Assembly: GCA_903851135.1 (NCBI GenBank) | Contig: CAINNK010000046.1 | Span: 1 to 51,408 of the forward strand | Direction of reading: 5' to 3' | From: an uncultured bacterium | Lineage (GTDB): Bacteria; Patescibacteriota; Minisyncoccia; Moranbacterales; GWC2-37-73 | Length of the DNA: 51,408 nt | In this document: in pieces, positions 9,448 to 49,938 of the stretch | How the letters are laid out: each line of letters begins with the position of its first letter | Position numbering within the stretch: position 1 is the stretch's first letter | Made by a program: the position numbers and the translations under genes | Notes under the pieces: generated by a model | The model's input: only the letters and a program-made list of their open reading frames with translations | The model's database searches: none | What the model was told of the DNA's origin: nothing

Positions 9448-9517
9448 ATTTTATTATCTAGCGTAGTGAGCGAAATGAAAGTAATCCTTCATTTCGCAGC
9501 GAGCGACGATAACAAAG
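9448..9517 (+). repeat. Palindromic intergenic repeat family C (copy 1)
   Basis: ttttattatctagcgtagtgagcgaaatgaaagtaatccttcatttcgcagcgagcgacgataacaaag. An inverted homolog lies at 36655-36723 and a looser relative at about 2973-3028. Confidence 0.8.
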
Positions 9518-10763: not shown

Positions 10764-10876
10764 ATTTTTACGAACTTATATTCTTTTTTGGCCATACGAG
10801 CGACAGTGAGTCAGAGCGCTTAGCCATAGTCTTGAGCTAAGCGCGTGCTCAAAAAAGGATATGAGTTCGTAAAAAT
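10764..10876 (+). repeat. Palindromic element family B (full copy, forward)
   Basis: 27-bp terminal inverted arms atttttacgaacttatattcttttttg / caaaaaaggatatgagttcgtaaaaat around a core containing gagcgacagtgag..gagcg. Confidence 0.85.
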
Positions 10877-22674: not shown

Positions 22675-22718
22675 AAAATTTTACAAACTTATTTCCTTTT
22701 TGGGCCATATGAGCGACA
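22675..22718 (+). repeat. Family B left arm and partial core (truncated)
   Basis: aaaattttacaaacttatttcctttttgggccatatgagcgaca matches the start of the 10764 copy. Confidence 0.7.
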
Positions 22719-22735
22719 ACGATAAGGTATTGACA

Positions 22736-22871
22736 TTAGGACTTACGCGCTTGATCGAAAAATTACTTACAACCAGTTTTTTAGCAAGAGAGACTTGAAG
22801 TAGACCAGGGGAGATTTTCTTAGCAAAGAAATTACGCTCTAGGAATTTGAGAGCAAGCGCGTAAGTCCTAA
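22736..22871 (+). repeat. Palindromic element family A (MITE or structured-RNA-like), copy 1
   Basis: Perfect 18-bp terminal inverted repeat ttaggacttacgcgcttg/caagcgcgtaagtcctaa. The core is conserved in the copies at 29358 and 36740. Confidence 0.9.
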
Positions 22872-29258: not shown

Positions 29259-29307
29259 AGCTTTTAGAATTAGATACGATTCATGGTTCCAGTCAAAACT
29301 TAAATCT

Positions 29308-29337
29308 AAAATTTTTACGAGCTTGTTTGCTTTTTAG
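29308..29337 (+). repeat. Family B left arm
   Basis: aatttttacgagcttgtttgctttttag, 28 bp identical to 35440-35467. Confidence 0.85.
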
Positions 29338-29357
29338 TCTGCACTTCTTAAATATAG

Positions 29358-29499
29358 ACTTAGGGCTTGCGCGTTTGATCGAAAATTACTTACAACCAGT
29401 TTTCTTAGCAAGTGAGACACTTGAAGTAGACCAGGGGCAATTTGCTTAGCAAAGAAATTACGCTCTAGGAATTTGAGAGCAAGGGCGCAAGCTCTAAGT
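29358..29499 (+). repeat. Palindromic element family A, copy 2
   Basis: acttagggcttgcgc...gcgcaagctctaagt arms with a compensatory change relative to copy 1, and the same core. Confidence 0.9.
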
Positions 29500-29537
29500 A
29501 AGGTCTGACTAAGTCATAAGCAAAGCCTAACAATGAT

Positions 29538-29566
29538 ATTATATCACCACCAAAGCAGGTCGTCAA
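29538..29566 (-). promoter_or_regulatory. Sigma70-like promoter reading leftward through the family A element toward the rhuM remnant
   Basis: Minus strand TTGACG-17 nt-TATAAT. Confidence 0.65.
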
Positions 29567-29655
29567 AGATTTTAATTTTAAGCCTGCTGCTGGCTAGACT
29601 TCCTAGCCTTTTTGAGCTAGAATAGAAACAACTTAAACTTAAAACTTTTCATTTT

Positions 29656-31494
29656 ATGCTAAAAAAATACGCCGTACCTTTCATCCTAACCCTCGTAATC
29701 GCCCTGAATCTTTTTTTGGGATTTTCCAGAATCGGAACTTATTCCGCCGTCGATGAACCCTATTGGACCTATGGACGCACTTCCAAATTTTGGACTGCCA
29801 TTGCCCAACACAAATGGCGCTCAACCAACATCAACGACAAACCCGGCATCACCGTGGCGATTTTGTCAGGCGCCGGACTACTGAAATATGATCCGATGCA
29901 ATATGAATCAATCCGAGGAGACGTGAAAACCGATCAGCAAATCAAAGACATCGACGGCATCAACTTTTATTTCCGAATGCCGATTTTTCTGTTTTGCACT
30001 TTCTCTTTGTTGGCTTTTTATTTCTTACTGAAAAAACTTTTTGGTCAAACCACCGCCCTGCTGGGTTTTGTTTTCATCGGCCTATCTCCAATTTTGCTGG
30101 GTATTTCCCTGATTATTAATCCGGATTCCTTGCTTTGGATCTTCCTGCCACTTTCCTTGCTGAGTTATTTTGCTTTTCAAAAACAGGCCGAGAAAAAATA
30201 TCTAGTGGCCAGTGGAATTTTCCTGGGACTTTCCCTGCTGACCAAATACGTAGCCAACATCCTTTACATTTTCTTTTTCATTTTGCCATTCTTGGAATAC
30301 ATCCTGACTGAAGAAAAACCGCCGCTGAAAAATTTTCTCAAAGCAGCGCTCAAAAATTATTTCATCCTCGCCGCCATTTCCATGGCAACTTTTTATGTTT
30401 TGTTTCCCGCCACCTGGGCGCATCCAAAAGTTTTGCTAGAAGGAACTTTCCTCAGCAAAGCGTTTGCCAAAACCTGGCCGATTTTCGCCGGCCTGGTCTT
30501 CCTCATCCTGGCTGACACCGTGCTGCTCAGCAACAAAATCACCCAGCCAATTTTGAACTTTTTTTCCAAACATAAAAAAATCTTCATCAACATTTTGATC
30601 TTTGCTTTTCTTGGAATTGTGCTATTGGTTTTCGTGGACACCTACTTGGGCATGAAACCTTTCAACTTGGAAGGCATCCTTTCTTCTCCCAAAGGCATTG
30701 GCATTAATGAAAAAGGTTTTGCCGTTGCCACCGCCGGCGCCATGTTGGCCAATGTGTATAGCTTGATTTTTGGCATGAATCCTGTCATCTTGTTGTTTTT
30801 CATCATTGGACTACTGACAACCACTAAGCAAAAAGTCGCAATCGATCAAGAAAAGAAAACTATCATTTATTTTGCGCTTTTCATTTTGCTTTACTATCTG
30901 GCCTCAACCGTCAACGACGTGGCTGCCACTGTGCGCTATCAAATCATCCTTTATCCTTTGGCTTTCATCATCGCTGCCATTGGCGCAAACCACGTTTTTT
31001 CGCAAAAGAAAATTCAGCAATTCAAATATATCACGCCTTTTGCAGTGACCATCGCGTTTTTCGCCATCCTGGCAATTTCCCTGCTGGCGCTCAAACCTTT
31101 TTATTTCACCTACGCCTCTTCCTTACTGCCGGAAAAATATTTGCTCAACACCAAAGATATGGGCGATGGCAGTTTCGAAGCCGCCGCTTATCTCAATGCA
31201 TTGCCTAATGCTCGCAACCTGATTGTCTGGTCAGACAAAGGCGCAGTTTGCACTGAATTTGTCGGAACTTGCAACATTGGTTTTTCCAAAAAAGATTTGC
31301 TGGGAAAAAATTATGACTATTTCGTCATTTCCGCCGGTCGAGTCAGCCGTTCAATGAAACTGTCAGGCAGCGCCAATGACATCGTTGATTTCAAAAAAAT
31401 CTATGCGACTGAAAAAGTTGAAAAAAACATCACTGTCGGCGGACGCTCGAATAATTTTGTGAAAATTATTTCCGCCCAAGCACTGAAAAATTAA
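29656..31494 (+). CDS. ArnT/PMT-like GT-C glycosyltransferase (distinct subfamily)
   Basis: AVDEPYW (DE motif), NDKPG, INPDS, GLSLLTKY, VRYQ; polytopic. Confidence 0.8.
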   Translation: MLKKYAVPFILTLVIALNLFLGFSRIGTYSAVDEPYWTYGRTSKFWTAIAQHKWRSTNINDKPGITVAILSGAGLLKYDPMQYESIRGDVKTDQQIKDIDGINFYFRMPIFLFCTFSLLAFYFLLKKLFGQTTALLGFVFIGLSPILLGISLIINPDSLLWIFLPLSLLSYFAFQKQAEKKYLVASGIFLGLSLLTKYVANILYIFFFILPFLEYILTEEKPPLKNFLKAALKNYFILAAISMATFYVLFPATWAHPKVLLEGTFLSKAFAKTWPIFAGLVFLILADTVLLSNKITQPILNFFSKHKKIFINILIFAFLGIVLLVFVDTYLGMKPFNLEGILSSPKGIGINEKGFAVATAGAMLANVYSLIFGMNPVILLFFIIGLLTTTKQKVAIDQEKKTIIYFALFILLYYLASTVNDVAATVRYQIILYPLAFIIAAIGANHVFSQKKIQQFKYITPFAVTIAFFAILAISLLALKPFYFTYASSLLPEKYLLNTKDMGDGSFEAAAYLNALPNARNLIVWSDKGAVCTEFVGTCNIGFSKKDLLGKNYDYFVISAGRVSRSMKLSGSANDIVDFKKIYATEKVEKNITVGGRSNNFVKIISAQALKN

Positions 31495-31532
31495 CAAGCC
31501 ATGAGTAAATAATAACTTTCGGAAAATAAGTT

Positions 31533-31659
31533 AGAAATTTTTACCTCACTTGTTTACTTTTTAGGGCGCGCTCCTTTGGTCAGGAGTTATGACCAATCGC
31601 TCAGTACTCACTGTCGCTCGCAGTGGTCTAAAAAAGCAAACAAGCTCGTAAAAATTTCT
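31533..31659 (-). repeat. Palindromic element family B (full copy, reverse)
   Basis: Arms agaaatttttacctcacttgtttactttttag / ctaaaaaagcaaacaagctcgtaaaaatttct. The core is the reverse complement of the 10764/35440 core. Confidence 0.85.
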
Positions 31660-31714
31660 GAGTAAGTTTTAATTAAAGCCAGTACTTGAGTTTAACCAAA
31701 ATTAACAAACTACC

Positions 31715-33448
31715 ATGTCGCCAGAAAACCAAAAAGAAAAATTGCTCAAAAAAATTAAAGCCAACAAGCTCGAAATCATTTTCATCATCGCAGTCATCTC
31801 ACTCGGAATTTTCCTGAGAACTTTTCACTTTTCCAGCTGGCTGCATTTCGAAATAGATCAAGCTTTCGATTTCGATTTGGTCTTGCCAGCTGTCAGCGAT
31901 GGTCCGCAAAACTTGCCTTTGCTTGGTCCCAACGTCGGCGGCGGGCTGCTGCGACTTGGTCCAGCCTTTTACTATTTGCAATACGCAAGCGCCCTTGTCT
32001 TTGGCAACACCCCAACCGGCCACGCCATGAACGTGCTTATTTTGTCCATCTTGGCGTTGCCGCTCTTTTATGTTTTCTGCCGCAAATATTTTTCCAAAAT
32101 TGAAGCCTTGGGCTTGCTGACAATCTTTACCACTTCGCTTTACTGCGTGCTTTATGCCCGTTTTTCCTGGAGTCCCAACGTGTTGCCATTTTTGATTTTG
32201 TTTTCTTTCTTTGCGCTGCTGCAAGCTTTTGCAGCCAAAGAAAAACATCCGGCTCGCTGGTTTTTGCTGTCTGTTGCGGCTATCACCGTCACCTCTCAAA
32301 TCCACTTTAATTCCTTTTTTGTTGCGCCGCTCATCGCCGTGACTTTCACCGCCATCAAACGTCCTCGCTTTGCTTGGAAAGTCTGGTTGGCCGCCCTGGG
32401 AATTGTTGCCGTGCTCTATCTCCCGGTTGTTCTTAATGACGTCAAAAACAGCAAAGAAAATTATCATTATTTGAAAGAAAAATTTGCCAAGACCAAGCCG
32501 GGAGACATTTTTGCGGCCAACACCATCTTCCAAACAGTTCAGTATAGCGCCTATGAATATTTTTTCATCAACACTGCCAACGACCAAATCAACGGAACCA
32601 AACTGACTGGCAATGGCTTTGACTGCAAAAACTGCCAGGAAAATCTTGGCTTGAAGATTTTGGCAATTGTGCTTTTTTTGCTCAGCTTAGTGGTTTTGAT
32701 GGTAAAATTTCTAAAGGAAAAAAACAGCGACCGCAAAAATTTTCTGCTCTTGGCGGCTTTGTGGTTTTTGTTTTCTTTTTATTTGATTTACTCTATCGCC
32801 GACGGCTATCGCATGTATCCAAGATTTTTCCTGATGATTTGCCCACTGGCCATCATCTTTTATGGCTTTCTTTTGCAGCTGCTCAGACCCGAGCAAAACA
32901 AAAAGCGACTCGCCATTTTTTGCGCCGCTATTTTGGTGCTGGCTGGTCTTAATTTGCAAAGAATAATTCCAGTTTTTCAGCAATTGCAAAGCGCGCCAGT
33001 CAGTCAAAATGATGACATCGAAACAGGCGACATTTTTCCAAACACCAACCGTCTTACTCTTGGACAACAAGTCGCAATTGTCGACTACATCCAATCCAAA
33101 GCAAAAACCAATAACTATCCAGTTTATCTGAGCGCCAAATCAGAATATGAACCGGCCTTCTGGGCACTACTTGAACAACGCAACATTCACTATTACAGCG
33201 AGATCAACACCAAGCAACTCTACGTGCAAGGAAATTATTTTGACATTCGTTTGGCTGGCGCTTCTGACAAAGTTGATTCTAAATTCGCTGCCTTGGAAAG
33301 CAAAAATTTTGGCACCCTGACTGTTTATTTCATGCAGCCCTTGCCGCAAGCCGCAACCGCCCAAAGACAAGCTGATTCGCAAAGAGAAAAAACTGAGGAA
33401 ATCAGCATTGTTTCAAAGTTGCTCACGTGGGAGAAACTTTTTAAGTGA
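31715..33448 (+). CDS. ArnT/PMT-like GT-C glycosyltransferase (paralog 5)
   Basis: SWLHFEIDQAFD, GPQNLPLLGP, LRLGPAFYY, YARFSWSPN, SQIH. Confidence 0.82.
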   Translation: MSPENQKEKLLKKIKANKLEIIFIIAVISLGIFLRTFHFSSWLHFEIDQAFDFDLVLPAVSDGPQNLPLLGPNVGGGLLRLGPAFYYLQYASALVFGNTPTGHAMNVLILSILALPLFYVFCRKYFSKIEALGLLTIFTTSLYCVLYARFSWSPNVLPFLILFSFFALLQAFAAKEKHPARWFLLSVAAITVTSQIHFNSFFVAPLIAVTFTAIKRPRFAWKVWLAALGIVAVLYLPVVLNDVKNSKENYHYLKEKFAKTKPGDIFAANTIFQTVQYSAYEYFFINTANDQINGTKLTGNGFDCKNCQENLGLKILAIVLFLLSLVVLMVKFLKEKNSDRKNFLLLAALWFLFSFYLIYSIADGYRMYPRFFLMICPLAIIFYGFLLQLLRPEQNKKRLAIFCAAILVLAGLNLQRIIPVFQQLQSAPVSQNDDIETGDIFPNTNRLTLGQQVAIVDYIQSKAKTNNYPVYLSAKSEYEPAFWALLEQRNIHYYSEINTKQLYVQGNYFDIRLAGASDKVDSKFAALESKNFGTLTVYFMQPLPQAATAQRQADSQREKTEEISIVSKLLTWEKLFK

Positions 33449-33505
33449 GTTTAAGAAAAGTTTTTTTACAGATGATTCTAAATAAGTCTAGTTATTTCGC
33501 AGCGT

Positions 33506-33620
33506 ATTTTTACGAGCTTGTTTCCTTTTTAGAGCACGCTCCTTGGCTAGGAACTATAGCCAAGGGCTCTGGCTTCCTGTCGGGCGCTAAGGCCTAAAAA
33601 GAAAACAAGCTCGTAAAAAT
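33506..33620 (-). repeat. Palindromic element family B (full copy, reverse)
   Basis: Arms atttttacgagcttgtttcctttttag / ctaaaaagaaaacaagctcgtaaaaat, with internal hairpin cttggctag..tatagccaag. Confidence 0.85.
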
Positions 33621-33704
33621 TTTGAAACATTTCATGTTCCTGAAGCCATGCATTTCGCATGCTTCATATTTAAATCTATCTTGTTTGTTAAATTATTATT
33701 CACT

Positions 33705-35372
33705 ATGCCAAAAAACAAAACCGTAGCCAAACAAAAACCCAAAAAAAATAAACTCCTGTTGCCAAACTATCTCATCTATCTTTTCATCGGCATCTTGATC
33801 TTGCTGGGAATTTCACTTAACCGTGAAAATTTGATTTCCATCAAAAAAACCCTCGTCCCGCAACCAATAGTCGCCCCACTACCCACATACGAAACAATCA
33901 ACATCAATCCTTTTCAAAATGAAAGCAACTTCACCTTGCCCTTTGCCATGCCAGACATTGTTCAACCAATTTTTCCTGAACGCGCTTGCAACATCGCCGA
34001 CTATGGAGCCGTAGCAGACGCCACTACCAAAAATACTCAAGCCATTGCCAATGCCATCGCCGACTGCGCGAAAAATGGCGGCGGTCACGTGCTGATTCCA
34101 AAGGGAGCTTGGCTGACCGGAGCCGTGCATCTGGAAAGCAACATTGATCTACATTTAAACCAAGGCGCAGTTTTGATTTTCAGCGCTGATCCAAATGATT
34201 ATCTGCCGGTTGTGCTCTCCCGCTATGAAGGCATCGATGTTTACAATTATTCTCCCCTCATTTACGCCAACGGCAAACAAAACATTGCAGTCACCGGCAA
34301 TGGCAGAATTTTGGGCAACGGCCAAGCTTGGCTGGATTTTAACGACGTGGCTATCACTCATACTCTCTATGACATGGGCGACAAAAATGTGCCAATCAAA
34401 AATCGCGTCTTCGGCAGTGCTGAAAAAATGCTGCGACCGGCTTTCATTGAATTCATCAACAGCAATTCTATTCTGCTTGAAGATTTTTCCATTGAAAACG
34501 GCCCAATGTGGACCATTCATCCAACCTACAGTCAAAACATCATCATTCGCAATATTTCCATTTTGACAACTGGCAAAAACAACGACGGCATTGATGTTGA
34601 CTCGTCGAAAAATGTGCTCATCGAAGATTCACGCCTGAACACCAACGATGATTCCATTGCTCTCAAATCTGGCAAAGCCCGTGACGGCTTGAAAGTCAAC
34701 CGGGCCACCGAAAACATCATCATTCGCAACAACGTCATCAGCAACGGTCATGGAGGCATTGCCATTGGCAGTGAGATTGCCGGCGGAGTTCAAAATGTTT
34801 TCATGTATAATTGCAGTATCATTGGCAATCAATATGGCATTCGTTTGAAAGGCTTGGAAAATGAAAGCATTTGGGCAAACAATTTGTGGTTTCAAAACAT
34901 TAAAATGGATAAAATTCTTTTTAATGCAATTCAAATGACCATGCACTATGGTTCCGACCAAGCTTCCGGCAACACCGGCGTGCCTGTTTTTCAAAATATT
35001 CATTTTTCAAACATTGTTAGTCCTCATTCCCACGAGTCGATTGAAATAGATGCCTTGGAAAACAGCCCTGTGGAAGACGTGACGATTGAAAATAGCAGAC
35101 TTGCCGCTGGGGCAGGTGTCGATCTGCAAAACGTCAACAATTTTTCACTCAAGACCACCACTATCCAATCCAAAGAAGCTCCAATTTTCACCATCACCAA
35201 TAGCCGCAACGTGCTACTTGAAAATCCAAGTTGCCCACTGGCCACAAAAATATGCGCCGCGGTCAACGGCGCTGCAACACAAAACATTCAATTGCCTTCA
35301 AAAAATCCAACTACCCTTCAAAAGAAAGTCCAACTTAGTCCGGAAGTTTCCAGCGATCAAGTTTCTTTTTGA
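33705..35372 (+). CDS. Glycoside hydrolase family 28 (polygalacturonase-like), membrane anchored
   Basis: All four GH28 motifs: NNDGID, NDDSIALKSG, GHGGIAIGSE, GIRLK. Basic N-terminus plus TM. ATG 33705 preferred over 33648. Confidence 0.92.
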   Translation: MPKNKTVAKQKPKKNKLLLPNYLIYLFIGILILLGISLNRENLISIKKTLVPQPIVAPLPTYETININPFQNESNFTLPFAMPDIVQPIFPERACNIADYGAVADATTKNTQAIANAIADCAKNGGGHVLIPKGAWLTGAVHLESNIDLHLNQGAVLIFSADPNDYLPVVLSRYEGIDVYNYSPLIYANGKQNIAVTGNGRILGNGQAWLDFNDVAITHTLYDMGDKNVPIKNRVFGSAEKMLRPAFIEFINSNSILLEDFSIENGPMWTIHPTYSQNIIIRNISILTTGKNNDGIDVDSSKNVLIEDSRLNTNDDSIALKSGKARDGLKVNRATENIIIRNNVISNGHGGIAIGSEIAGGVQNVFMYNCSIIGNQYGIRLKGLENESIWANNLWFQNIKMDKILFNAIQMTMHYGSDQASGNTGVPVFQNIHFSNIVSPHSHESIEIDALENSPVEDVTIENSRLAAGAGVDLQNVNNFSLKTTTIQSKEAPIFTITNSRNVLLENPSCPLATKICAAVNGAATQNIQLPSKNPTTLQKKVQLSPEVSSDQVSF

Positions 35373-35439
35373 AAGAAAAGTCAGCATTTAAGCTGAGAAG
35401 TGATTATATATAAATCATGCTTTTCTAAAACTAAGTTAG

Positions 35440-35557
35440 AATTTTTACGAGCTTGTTTGCTTTTTAGACCACTGCGACCGACAGCGAATTCTGAGCGATT
35501 GGCTATAGTTCCTAGCCAAGAGCGTGTCCTAAAAAGTAAACAAGGGAAGTAAAAATT
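35440..35557 (+). repeat. Palindromic element family B (full copy, forward)
   Basis: Arms aatttttacgagcttgtttgctttttag / ctaaaaagtaaacaagggaagtaaaaatt, with core cactgcgaccgacagcg..gagcgattggcta..tagccaa. Confidence 0.85.
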
Positions 35558-35621
35558 TTAAGGAGTCAATTCAAAATTTTTAAAACCCTATATTTTGTAT
35601 GATGCACGCTACACATAATAC

Positions 35622-36563
35622 CTAAACAGCTTTGCGATTTTTCAAATAAAGCGGCAAAGCCGTGAAGCTGACAATCATTTGCAAAATCCTAATAATAATG
35701 GAAACTGCAATGACCGCCGAAGAACTCACCCCGAAAAAGCCAAAAAAAGTGACATACGCCCATTCTTGCACGCCAATGTTCCCCACACTGATTGGCACGG
35801 CTGAAACAATGCTAATCAAAAAGATTACCGAAAGATAATTCAGGAGGCCAACTTGAATTCCCAACGCCCAAAAAATCACAAAATTCAAAACCGCCAAACC
35901 CACCAAACCAAAAACAACAGACAGAGTCATCGCACCCAAAAAGATTTTTTTGTGAGCATAATATTCATGCAGCGCCCCCAGAAATTCCAAAACTTTTTTC
36001 GGAATAAATTTGGCAAGATGTTTCCAAAATGGAAGTTTCATGATCAGTCCCAAACTTAGAACCCCAAACAAACACAGCAAAATCAAACTCGCAATTGATA
36101 GGAGAACCTTGTGTTCAAAAATAACTTGCCAATTGAGAGCTGCGAAAAAAACTGACAGCAGCATAGCTCCAAGCAATCCCGTCAATCTATCCATCACCAC
36201 ACTGGCAGCGGCCGCCGCAAATCTTTTGTCTTTTTTGCCAATTTGATAAGCGCGATAAGTGTCGCCGCCAATAAAAGACGGTAAAAAATTGTTAATAAAA
36301 GTTCCTGTTAAATATAGTTGAAAACACTGCTGGACCGAAACATCCAGACCTTTGAACTTGGCCAACATTTGCCATTTGAAAGAAGAAATTACCATCCCAA
36401 CAAGAAGCACCGCGACATACAGAACAATTTGCCAAACAGAAATTCTTTTCAGATAGAACAACACTTCCGCCCATTCTATTTTCAAAATCAACAAATACAC
36501 CAGCACCGCGCTGGCAGCCAATTTCAAAACAAACTGAGCAATTCTTTTTTGATTGATTTGCAT
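35622..36563 (-). CDS. Lysylphosphatidylglycerol synthase TM-domain / flippase-like protein (UPF0104)
   Basis: FINNFLPSFIGGDTYR, SVVMDRLTG, PISVGNIGVQE. Confidence 0.88.
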   Translation of the reverse strand: MQINQKRIAQFVLKLAASAVLVYLLILKIEWAEVLFYLKRISVWQIVLYVAVLLVGMVISSFKWQMLAKFKGLDVSVQQCFQLYLTGTFINNFLPSFIGGDTYRAYQIGKKDKRFAAAAASVVMDRLTGLLGAMLLSVFFAALNWQVIFEHKVLLSIASLILLCLFGVLSLGLIMKLPFWKHLAKFIPKKVLEFLGALHEYYAHKKIFLGAMTLSVVFGLVGLAVLNFVIFWALGIQVGLLNYLSVIFLISIVSAVPISVGNIGVQEWAYVTFFGFFGVSSSAVIAVSIIIRILQMIVSFTALPLYLKNRKAV

Positions 36564-36586
36564 ATTTTTTGCTAAATAAAAGGGTA

Positions 36587-36650
36587 TTAATACCCCAGGG
36601 CAAGCCCTGGACCCTTCAGGCTCACACCGATAAAATCGGTGAGGTATTAA
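36587..36650. repeat. Branched palindromic REP-like element
   Basis: Outer ttaatacc/ggtattaa enclosing hairpins ccaggg-caag-ccctgg and caccgat-aaa-atcggtg. Confidence 0.7.
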
Positions 36651-36654
36651 ACCT

Positions 36655-36723
36655 TTTGTTATCGTCGCTCGCTCGGAAATGAAAGAGTACTTTCATTCCT
36701 CTCGCTTCGCTAGATAATAAAAT
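36655..36723 (-). repeat. Family C repeat (copy 2, inverted)
   Basis: Its reverse complement aligns with 9448-9517. Confidence 0.8.
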
Positions 36724-36739
36724 TTTACTACTTCTTTAA

Positions 36740-36877
36740 GCTAGGGCTTACGCGTTTGCTCGAAAATTACTTACAACCAGTTTTATTAGCGAGAAAAACT
36801 TGAAGTAGACCAGGGGCAGCTTTCTTAGCAAAGAAAATACGCTCTAGGAATTTACGAGCAGGCGCGTAAGCCCTAGC
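36740..36877 (+). repeat. Palindromic element family A, copy 3
   Basis: gctagggcttacgcgtttgctcg / cgagcaggcgcgtaagccctagc arms and the same core. Confidence 0.9.
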
Positions 36878-41559: not shown

Positions 41560-41635
41560 GTAGCGGTGGATAGGATTCGAACCTTCAATTCAGCCAAATG
41601 AACGACTGCGTTTTAACCGATTAGACTACACCGCC
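41560..41635 (-). tRNA. Atypical or pseudo tRNA (8-nt anticodon loop GTTCATTT; identity unresolved)
   Basis: Minus strand GGCGGTG acceptor / CACCGCT, D-loop with GG, CAGTC/GGCTG anticodon stem, GGTTCGAATCC T-loop with a bulged T-stem. Confidence 0.65.
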
Positions 41636-49726: not shown

Positions 49727-49765
49727 TTGAGCCGTCCATCAGAATCGAACTGATGACCTACGCGT
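49727..49765 (-). repeat. 39-bp exact duplicate of the tRNA-Thr 3' half (att-like)
   Basis: ttgagccgtccatcagaatcgaactgatgacctacgcgt is identical to 49863-49901. Confidence 0.92.
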
Positions 49766-49865
49766 GGAGCCTGTCCGCCTTGGGCGGAAGTGCGCATGGA
49801 GCCGATGGCCGGAATCGTCAGCCCTAGGCTGATCCGCCTTGGGCGGAAACCGCTCCTCAATTTTG

Positions 49866-49938
49866 AGCCGTCCATCAGAATCGAACTGATGACCTACGCG
49901 TTACGAGTGCGTCGCTCTGCCAACTGAGCTAGGACGGC
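49866..49938 (-). tRNA. tRNA-Thr(CGT)
   Basis: GCCGTCC/GGACGGC acceptor, AGCTCAGTTGGCAGAGC D-arm, ACGCA-CTCGTAA-CGCGT anticodon arm, ATCAG-TTCGATT-CTGAT T-arm. Confidence 0.93.

Follow-up and report, generated by a model that had tools for sequence, protein, structure and literature searches.

A glycan gene block in a Moranbacteria-type genome probably holds a cluster of ISL3-type miniature inverted-repeat insertions

Bacterial genomes carry miniature inverted-repeat transposable elements (MITEs) derived from insertion sequences (IS), among them the Correia/NEMIS elements of Neisseria, RUP of Streptococcus pneumoniae and the ERIC/IRU elements of enterobacteria. Here we report what is probably a cluster of such elements in contig CAINNK010000046.1 of an uncultured bacterium; all 51,408 nucleotides (nt) of this contig (C46) make up the window of our analysis, and the genome to which it belongs (G000) comprises 1.28 Mb on 46 contigs, with 38.5% G+C. 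A block of the window contains two genes of the GT-C glycosyltransferase type and one glycoside hydrolase family 28 (GH28) gene, and behind each of the three stands a copy of a palindromic repeat termed family B. A first-pass annotation of the window described family B as palindromic elements and proposed that they could be recombination sites analogous to the attC sites of integrons, through which single glycan genes are shuffled as cassettes. By aligning the flanks of the copies, we found that the palindrome extends for about 42 nt on each side of a core of about 115 nt, giving a unit of about 200 nt; this unit has outer inverted ends and 8-bp flanking duplications, and reaches beyond the element originally described. 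We consider the array to be a cluster of ISL3-type MITE insertions, and assign this reading a probability of roughly 0.88.

Copies were located with a profile of the core in the contigs of G000, in six other genomes of the same genus, in three genomes of a second genus and in 31 other relatives, and 111 were collected across genomes. The complete unit runs from GGGTCATACGCAAT... to ...ATTGCGTATGACCC and contains no open reading frame (ORF) of 100 or more amino acids. Outer-arm motifs are recognised in 81 of the 111 copies and both termini in 38, and it is these 38 whose flanking bases can be tested for a target duplication, with the expectation derived from flanks shuffled among copies. Twelve of the 38 match at all eight flanking bases, where 0.06 would be expected, nine match at seven of the eight (0.52 expected) and six at six of the eight (2.2 expected); a 9-mer version of the comparison gave the same picture.

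The termini of the unit recur in transposase-bearing elements. In a sister genome (G003, contig C1), an element of 1422 nt directly adjoins a MITE copy; its transposase gene, interrupted by one in-frame TAG, matches PF01610 (DDE_Tnp_ISL3; 1.1e-49), its ends are GGGGTCATACGCAATATAGGGTTCTAG and the inverse, and it is flanked by the repeat CAAAAAAG. A second ISL3-type IS, with the same ends inverted around the transposase gene (PF01610, 7.7e-50), occupies a public contig of 1521 nt (L144) that was found by scanning public genomes with a degenerate pattern of the ends. This pattern is loose, with 16 fixed bases, and most of the 120 loci that it returned are chance matches in unrelated taxa, the B core being present in 17 of 119. 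The sequence common to the MITE and the IS is limited to the terminal ~25 nt, and the 115-nt core is not derived from the IS. Insertion sequences of the ISL3 family reportedly generate 8-bp repeats, with a possible preference for AT-rich DNA (PMC3469429). We infer that the elements were mobilised by such an ISL3 transposase. Other elements of the genus were considered as parents and rejected: those of the PF01609 (IS4/IS5-type) and PF00872 (IS256-type) families have ends unlike the MITE termini, and five ISL3 fragments at contig starts of another sister genome (G005) have a different terminus. These five contigs (C27, C30, C32, C44 and C52; L241-L245) share their first ~140 nt, the 3' end of a different ISL3 transposase, which suggests a multi-copy IS that breaks the assembly. 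An 18-nt motif of the outer ends gave 19 matches in G000 at up to four mismatches and 15-27 in shuffles; we thus see no additional family with the MITE ends in this genome.

The elements are dispersed. Whereas the first-pass annotation had seen no copy outside the glycan locus, G000 contains 25 full copies and three fragments on 14 of its 46 contigs, and every one of the 25 full copies is intergenic. The exact 27-nt inner arm is found also on contigs C13, C19, C35 (twice) and C37. All seven genomes of the genus have core matches, with 12-27 matches in each of the six sisters; two of the three genomes of the second genus have weak ones, and the remaining 31 relatives searched gave no core match. 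Public loci that bear the core are labelled Candidatus Moranbacteria/Moraniibacteriota and Parcubacteria group. Housekeeping genes that neighbour copies include those for ArgRS, TsaE, a DHH protein, HlyD/AcrB, RibD_C, asparagine synthase, HU, TrmB and RsgA, and further ones of this kind are ribonucleotide reductase, KhpA, Hsp20, VanW, SpoU, GyrB, RNase III, PrmC and three subunits of NADH-dehydrogenase type. Glycan-type neighbours are also found (GT4, GT2 and GH130), but 15 of the 25 copies in G000 have no glycan-related neighbour, that is, neither a glycosyltransferase (GT) nor a glycoside hydrolase (GH). Glycosyltransferases are over-represented beside the copies, holding 9 of 50 neighbour slots as compared with ~48 GT1/GT2/PMT_2 genes among ~1200 ORFs, and the copies are clustered, with four in the window block and three at 84-87 kb of contig C14. 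We also considered a spread of the elements by duplication of GT-C genes. A profile of the GT-C genes of the window matched only three ORFs outside it, on contigs C4 and C14, and because none of these adjoins a B copy, the elements have not spread in this manner.

Presence and absence of the elements differ between relatives. In the sister genome G004, contig C27 carries the homologues of the second GT-C gene, the GH28 gene and the adjoining LPG-synthase gene in the same order as in the window, with no B match. The spacer between the second GT-C gene and the GH28 gene is 10 nt there and 199 nt in the window, and the convergent ends of the GH28 and LPG_synthase_TM genes, which lie 249 nt apart in the window, overlap by 11 nt. 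In G004, the homologue of GT-C gene 1 sits on a separate short contig, where it is followed by a different gene and no B copy is present, and we found no nucleotide-exact empty site for the copy at 31496-31698. The target duplication of that copy holds the stop codon of gene 1 on one side and ends 8 nt before the start codon of gene 2 on the other, so that the spacer before the insertion would have measured about 9 nt. The gene content of the region differs between species, but not at the B copies. In Logan public contigs from four runs of three studies, the sequence stops at the arms or passes unchanged through the copies at 31538 and 33506; no skip, inversion or circle joint was seen at any arm in them, although contigs can drop rare variants, which could therefore be missed. 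One unrelated diverged stretch appears in the public contigs, at 32595-32717. Variation of gene order at the copies, which had been proposed as a check on the cassette idea, is thus absent both from G004, where the order is the same without the sites, and from the contigs of the four runs.

The features of the window are collected in Table 1.

Table 1. Coordinates of the glycan-block genes, the MITE copies and the target duplications in the window.
Feature	Position	Strand	Remarks
MITE core between GT4 gene and rtcB	10764..10876	+	diverged subfamily (TTTTTTG/CAAAAAA arms)
Diverged truncated MITE	22679..22765	+	5' arm and part of interior, then family A repeat; E 4.6e-6, model positions 3-97
Truncated MITE	29271..29337	+	left outer arm and 27-nt inner arm only, then family A repeat
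GT-C gene 1 (PMT_2/PMT glycosyltransferase)	29656..31494	+	PF13231, 2.6e-11
Upstream target duplication AAATTAAC	31488..31495	.	includes TAA stop (31492-31494) of GT-C gene 1
Complete MITE copy, 203 nt	31496..31698	-	core 31538-31655; outer arms ending in diverged ISL3-type termini
Downstream target duplication AAATTAAC	31699..31706	.	8 nt before ATG (31715) of GT-C gene 2
GT-C-like gene 2	31715..33448	+	weak PMT_2 match (1.2e-4, 22.8 bits vs cut-off 26.1); paralogue of other GT-C genes
MITE copy, approximate boundaries	33465..33663	-	perfect 27-nt inner arms (core 33506-33620), diverged outer arms
GH28 glycoside hydrolase gene	33648..35372	+	PF00295, 8e-33
MITE copy, approximate boundaries	35400..35607	+	core 35441-35557, inverted relative to outer arms
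LPG_synthase_TM-domain protein gene, convergent with GH28	35622..36563	-	1.4e-38

Sequence and domain matches bear out the positions that the first-pass annotation had given for the copies, for the GT-C, GT-C and GH28 genes and for a 28-bp direct repeat, as well as its statement that the block is oriented opposite to both flanks: the three plus-strand genes sit between minus-strand flanks. The repeat consists of identical 28-mers at 29310-29337 and 35440-35467. The 27-nt inner arms of the window elements read ATTTTTACGAGCTTGTTTGCTTTTTAG and its complement. An isolated "B arm" had been placed at 29308, and a lone 27-nt arm does lie at 29311-29337, but it belongs to a truncated copy of which only the left half is left (29271-29337). 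The copy at 35400-35607 is the sole one with an inverted core among the 81 with recognisable outer arms, and the orientation of the copies relative to the genes is mixed within the window. The ATG called for the GH28 gene (33648) lies inside a MITE outer arm; since the G004 orthologue starts MQKNKK, which matches the window ORF from residue 20 (MPKNK), the true start is probably at 33705.

Taken together, judged at the sequence level, these data are best explained if family B is the palindromic core of a ~200-bp non-autonomous transposon mobilised in trans by a DDE transposase of the ISL3 family. The element is built in layers, with imperfect terminal inverted repeats of ~25 nt (GGGTCATACGCAATTTATGGTTC...) outermost, outer arms of ~42 nt next, and at the centre the 115-nt core, in which 27-bp inner arms enclose two hairpins, a small one with the loop GACA and a longer one (TTGGCTA...TAGCCAA). 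Insertion duplicates 8 bp of an AT-rich target. The elements probably landed in the very short spacers of densely packed operons, in many cases at a stop codon or beside one, and enlarged spacers of ~10 nt to 200-250 nt. Across the copies, the nearest stop codon is most often 45-49 nt away from the core, which puts the outer end of the element at or beside the stop codon. The copies lined up in the glycan block would then represent independent insertions, clustered locally because the locus is variable and tolerates them, and not a device for moving genes.

The core itself has a well-kept fold. We imposed a three-way-junction model on 109 aligned cores. It consists of a long stem, a hairpin of two pairs around a GACA loop, and a long hairpin at the base of which tandem G.A pairs alternate with Watson-Crick ones. 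Statements about strands refer to the strand beginning ATTTTTACGAGC, here called F. The folds of the four window cores clearly surpass those of shuffled sequences (z -4.2 to -8.9). The first-pass annotation was right that the inner hairpin of these copies changes in sequence while remaining paired and that, on the strand starting ATTTTTACGAG, which is F, their single mismatches in the arms read as G.T or T.G. Its suggestion that this reflects selection on a single-stranded fold holds in part. Over the 109 cores, 90.2% of pairing cells are paired, as against 84.6% in shuffles and 31-49% when the partners are slid; double-sided changes affect 23 of the 30 pairs, with 236 cells compared to 71.5 +/- 16 after shuffling, and none of 500 shuffles reaches any of the observed measures, although the shuffle control overstates the significance of the covariation since the copies are related. 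The excess of wobbles on F is modest, with 177 G.T and 96 A.C cells. Differences between nearest copies lead to G.T in 81 cases and to A.C in 49, with 67 double compensations; excluding the inherited pair 19-106, the figures are 71 G.T against 48 A.C (p about 0.03 by normal approximation). Of 23 copies of G000, 18 have the better fold on F, but at the 33506 copy the two strands fold equally (-57.0 vs -57.3 kcal/mol). The elements are also biased in orientation: between genes of the same direction, F is antisense in 63 copies and sense in 17, while 11 further copies lie between convergent and 12 between divergent genes, and 8 of the 111 have no neighbour on one side. Covariation of a direct repeat within the core (CTGCGAGCGA twice) was considered and rejected, all four combinations being found. 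At the Rfam gathering score, the window yields only two tRNAs; at E up to 5, the only further match is a plant microRNA (miRNA) hairpin model, which scores 29.6 bits where gathering requires 100. Between 29200 and 35700, promoter-like sites (12, vs 10.0 in shuffles) and terminator-like sites (12 vs 8.4) are not above shuffles. In the second genus, the cores keep the fold by compensated changes (GCAGTC/GACTGC for TTGGTC/GACCAA), and one locus there has two back-to-back copies.

Several observations weigh against a cluster of ISL3-type MITEs as a full account of the array. Of the 38 testable copies, 17 match at no more than six of the eight flanking bases, and the window copies at 33506 and 35441 have no clear target duplication. 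The window's own genome has no ISL3 transposase gene (PF01610, 0 matches), and the G003 transposase has an in-frame TAG, so that the elements need not be mobile at present. Conservation is lower in the termini than in the core (0.60 and 0.70 vs 0.85 as mean identity to the consensus in 104 copies), a comparison that is biased by the copies having been collected through the core. The core homologues of the second genus (L110-L115; G024 and G015) have no recognisable ISL3-type outer arms, and the core may for this reason predate the transposon ends or have no tie to them. Finally, transposition alone predicts neither the covariation, nor the strand-biased wobbles, nor the 63:17 orientation bias. 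Together with the better folding of F in most copies and the high conservation of the core, these are the features that would be expected if the core is a functional structured RNA, co-transcribed with its neighbours or antisense to them, which acts on the processing, stability or uncoupling of operon messages and rides on, or was captured by, the ISL3 ends. We regard this as doubtful, albeit deserving of some weight, and as an added layer that is compatible with a MITE. It has to contend with the lack of an Rfam family beyond the sub-threshold miRNA-hairpin match, with promoter- and terminator-like sites no more frequent than in shuffles, with the relatedness of the copies, which inflates the shuffle statistics, and with their collection through the core. 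Moreover, most copies have F running antisense to the genes around them, and a read-through mRNA therefore carries the weaker fold. Neutral correction of palindromes by template switching can keep them paired without selection. The kept pairing of the core would be due either to selection on the hairpin, as a transcribed RNA or as DNA that joins the two ends, or to correction of the palindrome during replication, and the orientation bias may have its cause in selection against the orientation that places the stronger hairpin in the mRNA. A more specific proposal is that the core is a module of its own, a three-way-junction hairpin under selection on one strand and older than the ISL3 ends, which stands alone in the second genus, was captured between ISL3 termini in the genus of the window and then spread into operon spacers; its action there could be that of an RNA or of single-stranded DNA, for instance in uncoupling adjacent genes as an antisense or processing element. 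We hold this to be improbable.

Two mechanisms that act on single-stranded hairpins were also weighed. The attC-like sites of the first-pass annotation would bound integron-like mobile cassettes of single glycan genes, to be excised, inverted or reordered, and much of what first strikes the eye in the window agrees with this: one element behind each of three single genes, a block inverted relative to its flanks, pairing that survives sequence variation, more wobbles on one strand, the enrichment of glycosyltransferase neighbours and the different downstream neighbour of the G004 homologue of GT-C gene 1. Repetitive extragenic palindromic (REP)-like sequences spread by a REP-associated tyrosine transposase (RAYT) or another IS200-type Y1 (HUH) transposase would likewise suit the hairpins and the strand asymmetry, and the genome has two Y1_Tnp matches. 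However, the elements have inverted termini shared with ISL3 and 8-bp duplications typical of a DDE transposon; attC sites are not known to have target duplications and IS-type termini, and Y1 transposases are not known to duplicate their target. Neither of the Y1 genes (C37:105 kb and C45:52 kb) adjoins a B copy, and the only tyrosine recombinase match of the genome (PF00589) is on contig C18, unlinked, with none on the contig of the window, in agreement with the earlier statement that the window has no recombinase. Cassettes of glycan genes are further contradicted by the majority of copies that have no GT or GH beside them, by the housekeeping neighbours, by the mixed orientation within the window, by the empty sites in G004 (where both the conserved gene order and the rearranged GT-C gene 1 homologue are without copies) and by the lack of joints at the arms in the public contigs. 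Because of the target duplications, the lack of a linked recombinase and the genome-wide spread, both mechanisms fail in their defining features; we find the RAYT-type spread very improbable, and the attC-like reading is largely refuted and extremely improbable. Genome-wide dispersal, which the first-pass annotation had associated with ordinary REP or MITE repeats, is what we find; significant covariation, the absence of which it had associated with the same repeats, is nevertheless present.

Other repeats were noted in the window. Family A is a palindrome of ~136 nt with ends TAGGGCTTGCGCG..., present at 22737-22870, 29361-29496 and 36740-36877; it occupies 11 places on nine contigs of G000, has many matches in the sister genomes, and two of its copies stand directly behind truncated B copies. 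Family C, of ~150 nt and rich in hairpins, is found at 36574-36725 and 9448-9516 and at nine places on eight contigs in all, with up to 95% identity to copies in a sister genome. A perfect 107-nt tandem duplication (family D7) lies at 1836-2049. An identical direct repeat of 39 nt is present at 49727-49765 and 49863-49901, the second of which is within a tRNA-Thr gene (49865-49938, minus strand), so the repeat looks like a duplicated part of the tRNA. ARAGORN reported a tRNA-??? at 41560-41635, with an odd two-base reading of the anticodon loop, that Rfam does not report at the gathering score.

The ISL3-type MITE reading removes from a genome of the Candidate Phyla Radiation (CPR) the integron-like glycan cassette, which is tempting but, in our judgement, wrong, and documents an active-looking IS/MITE pair in ultra-small bacteria of the Moranbacteria type. 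Although the genomes of such bacteria are regarded as streamlined, tightly packed operons in this one appear to have had spacers of ~10 nt enlarged to 200-250 nt. The repeats have practical consequences too, in that they break assemblies, with public contigs ending at the arms, and create false start codons such as that called for the GH28 gene. With their kept core, their orientation bias and their stand-alone relatives, the elements offer a test case for selection on MITE hairpins.

Among known systems, integron attC sites resemble the window elements in being imperfect palindromes behind single genes, in keeping structure over sequence and in having one strand that folds better; the window elements differ from them in having target duplications and IS termini, in being found genome-wide and beside housekeeping genes, in having no linked integrase, and in that genes retain their order at sites that lack a copy. 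With IS of the ISL3 family (IS31831, IS1411, ISL3; PF01610), they share termini that match an ISL3-type element of the same genus, and their 8-bp duplications and AT-rich targets agree with what PMC3469429 reports for that family. Unlike these IS, the window elements encode nothing and have only ~25 terminal nt in common with them, and the genome provides no ISL3 transposase that we could find. A search of the full-text literature, judged by title and with subscription journals outside its scope, turned up no paper on MITEs in this group of bacteria. The closest likeness is to the bacterial MITEs with which we began. Like them, the elements are non-coding and nearly palindromic throughout, measure 100-250 bp, number tens of copies per genome, all intergenic and often just behind genes, bear terminal inverted repeats, target duplications and ends common to a transposase-bearing IS, and differ in presence and absence between relatives. 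They are unlike those MITEs in their host, a CPR genome of only 1.28 Mb, and in their 115-nt core, which is not IS-derived, is more conserved than the termini and is found without them in another genus. In size, inverted termini, a duplication of fixed length, dispersal, ends shared with an IS, and presence or absence between relatives, every sequence-level test that we applied nevertheless gave the result expected of a MITE.

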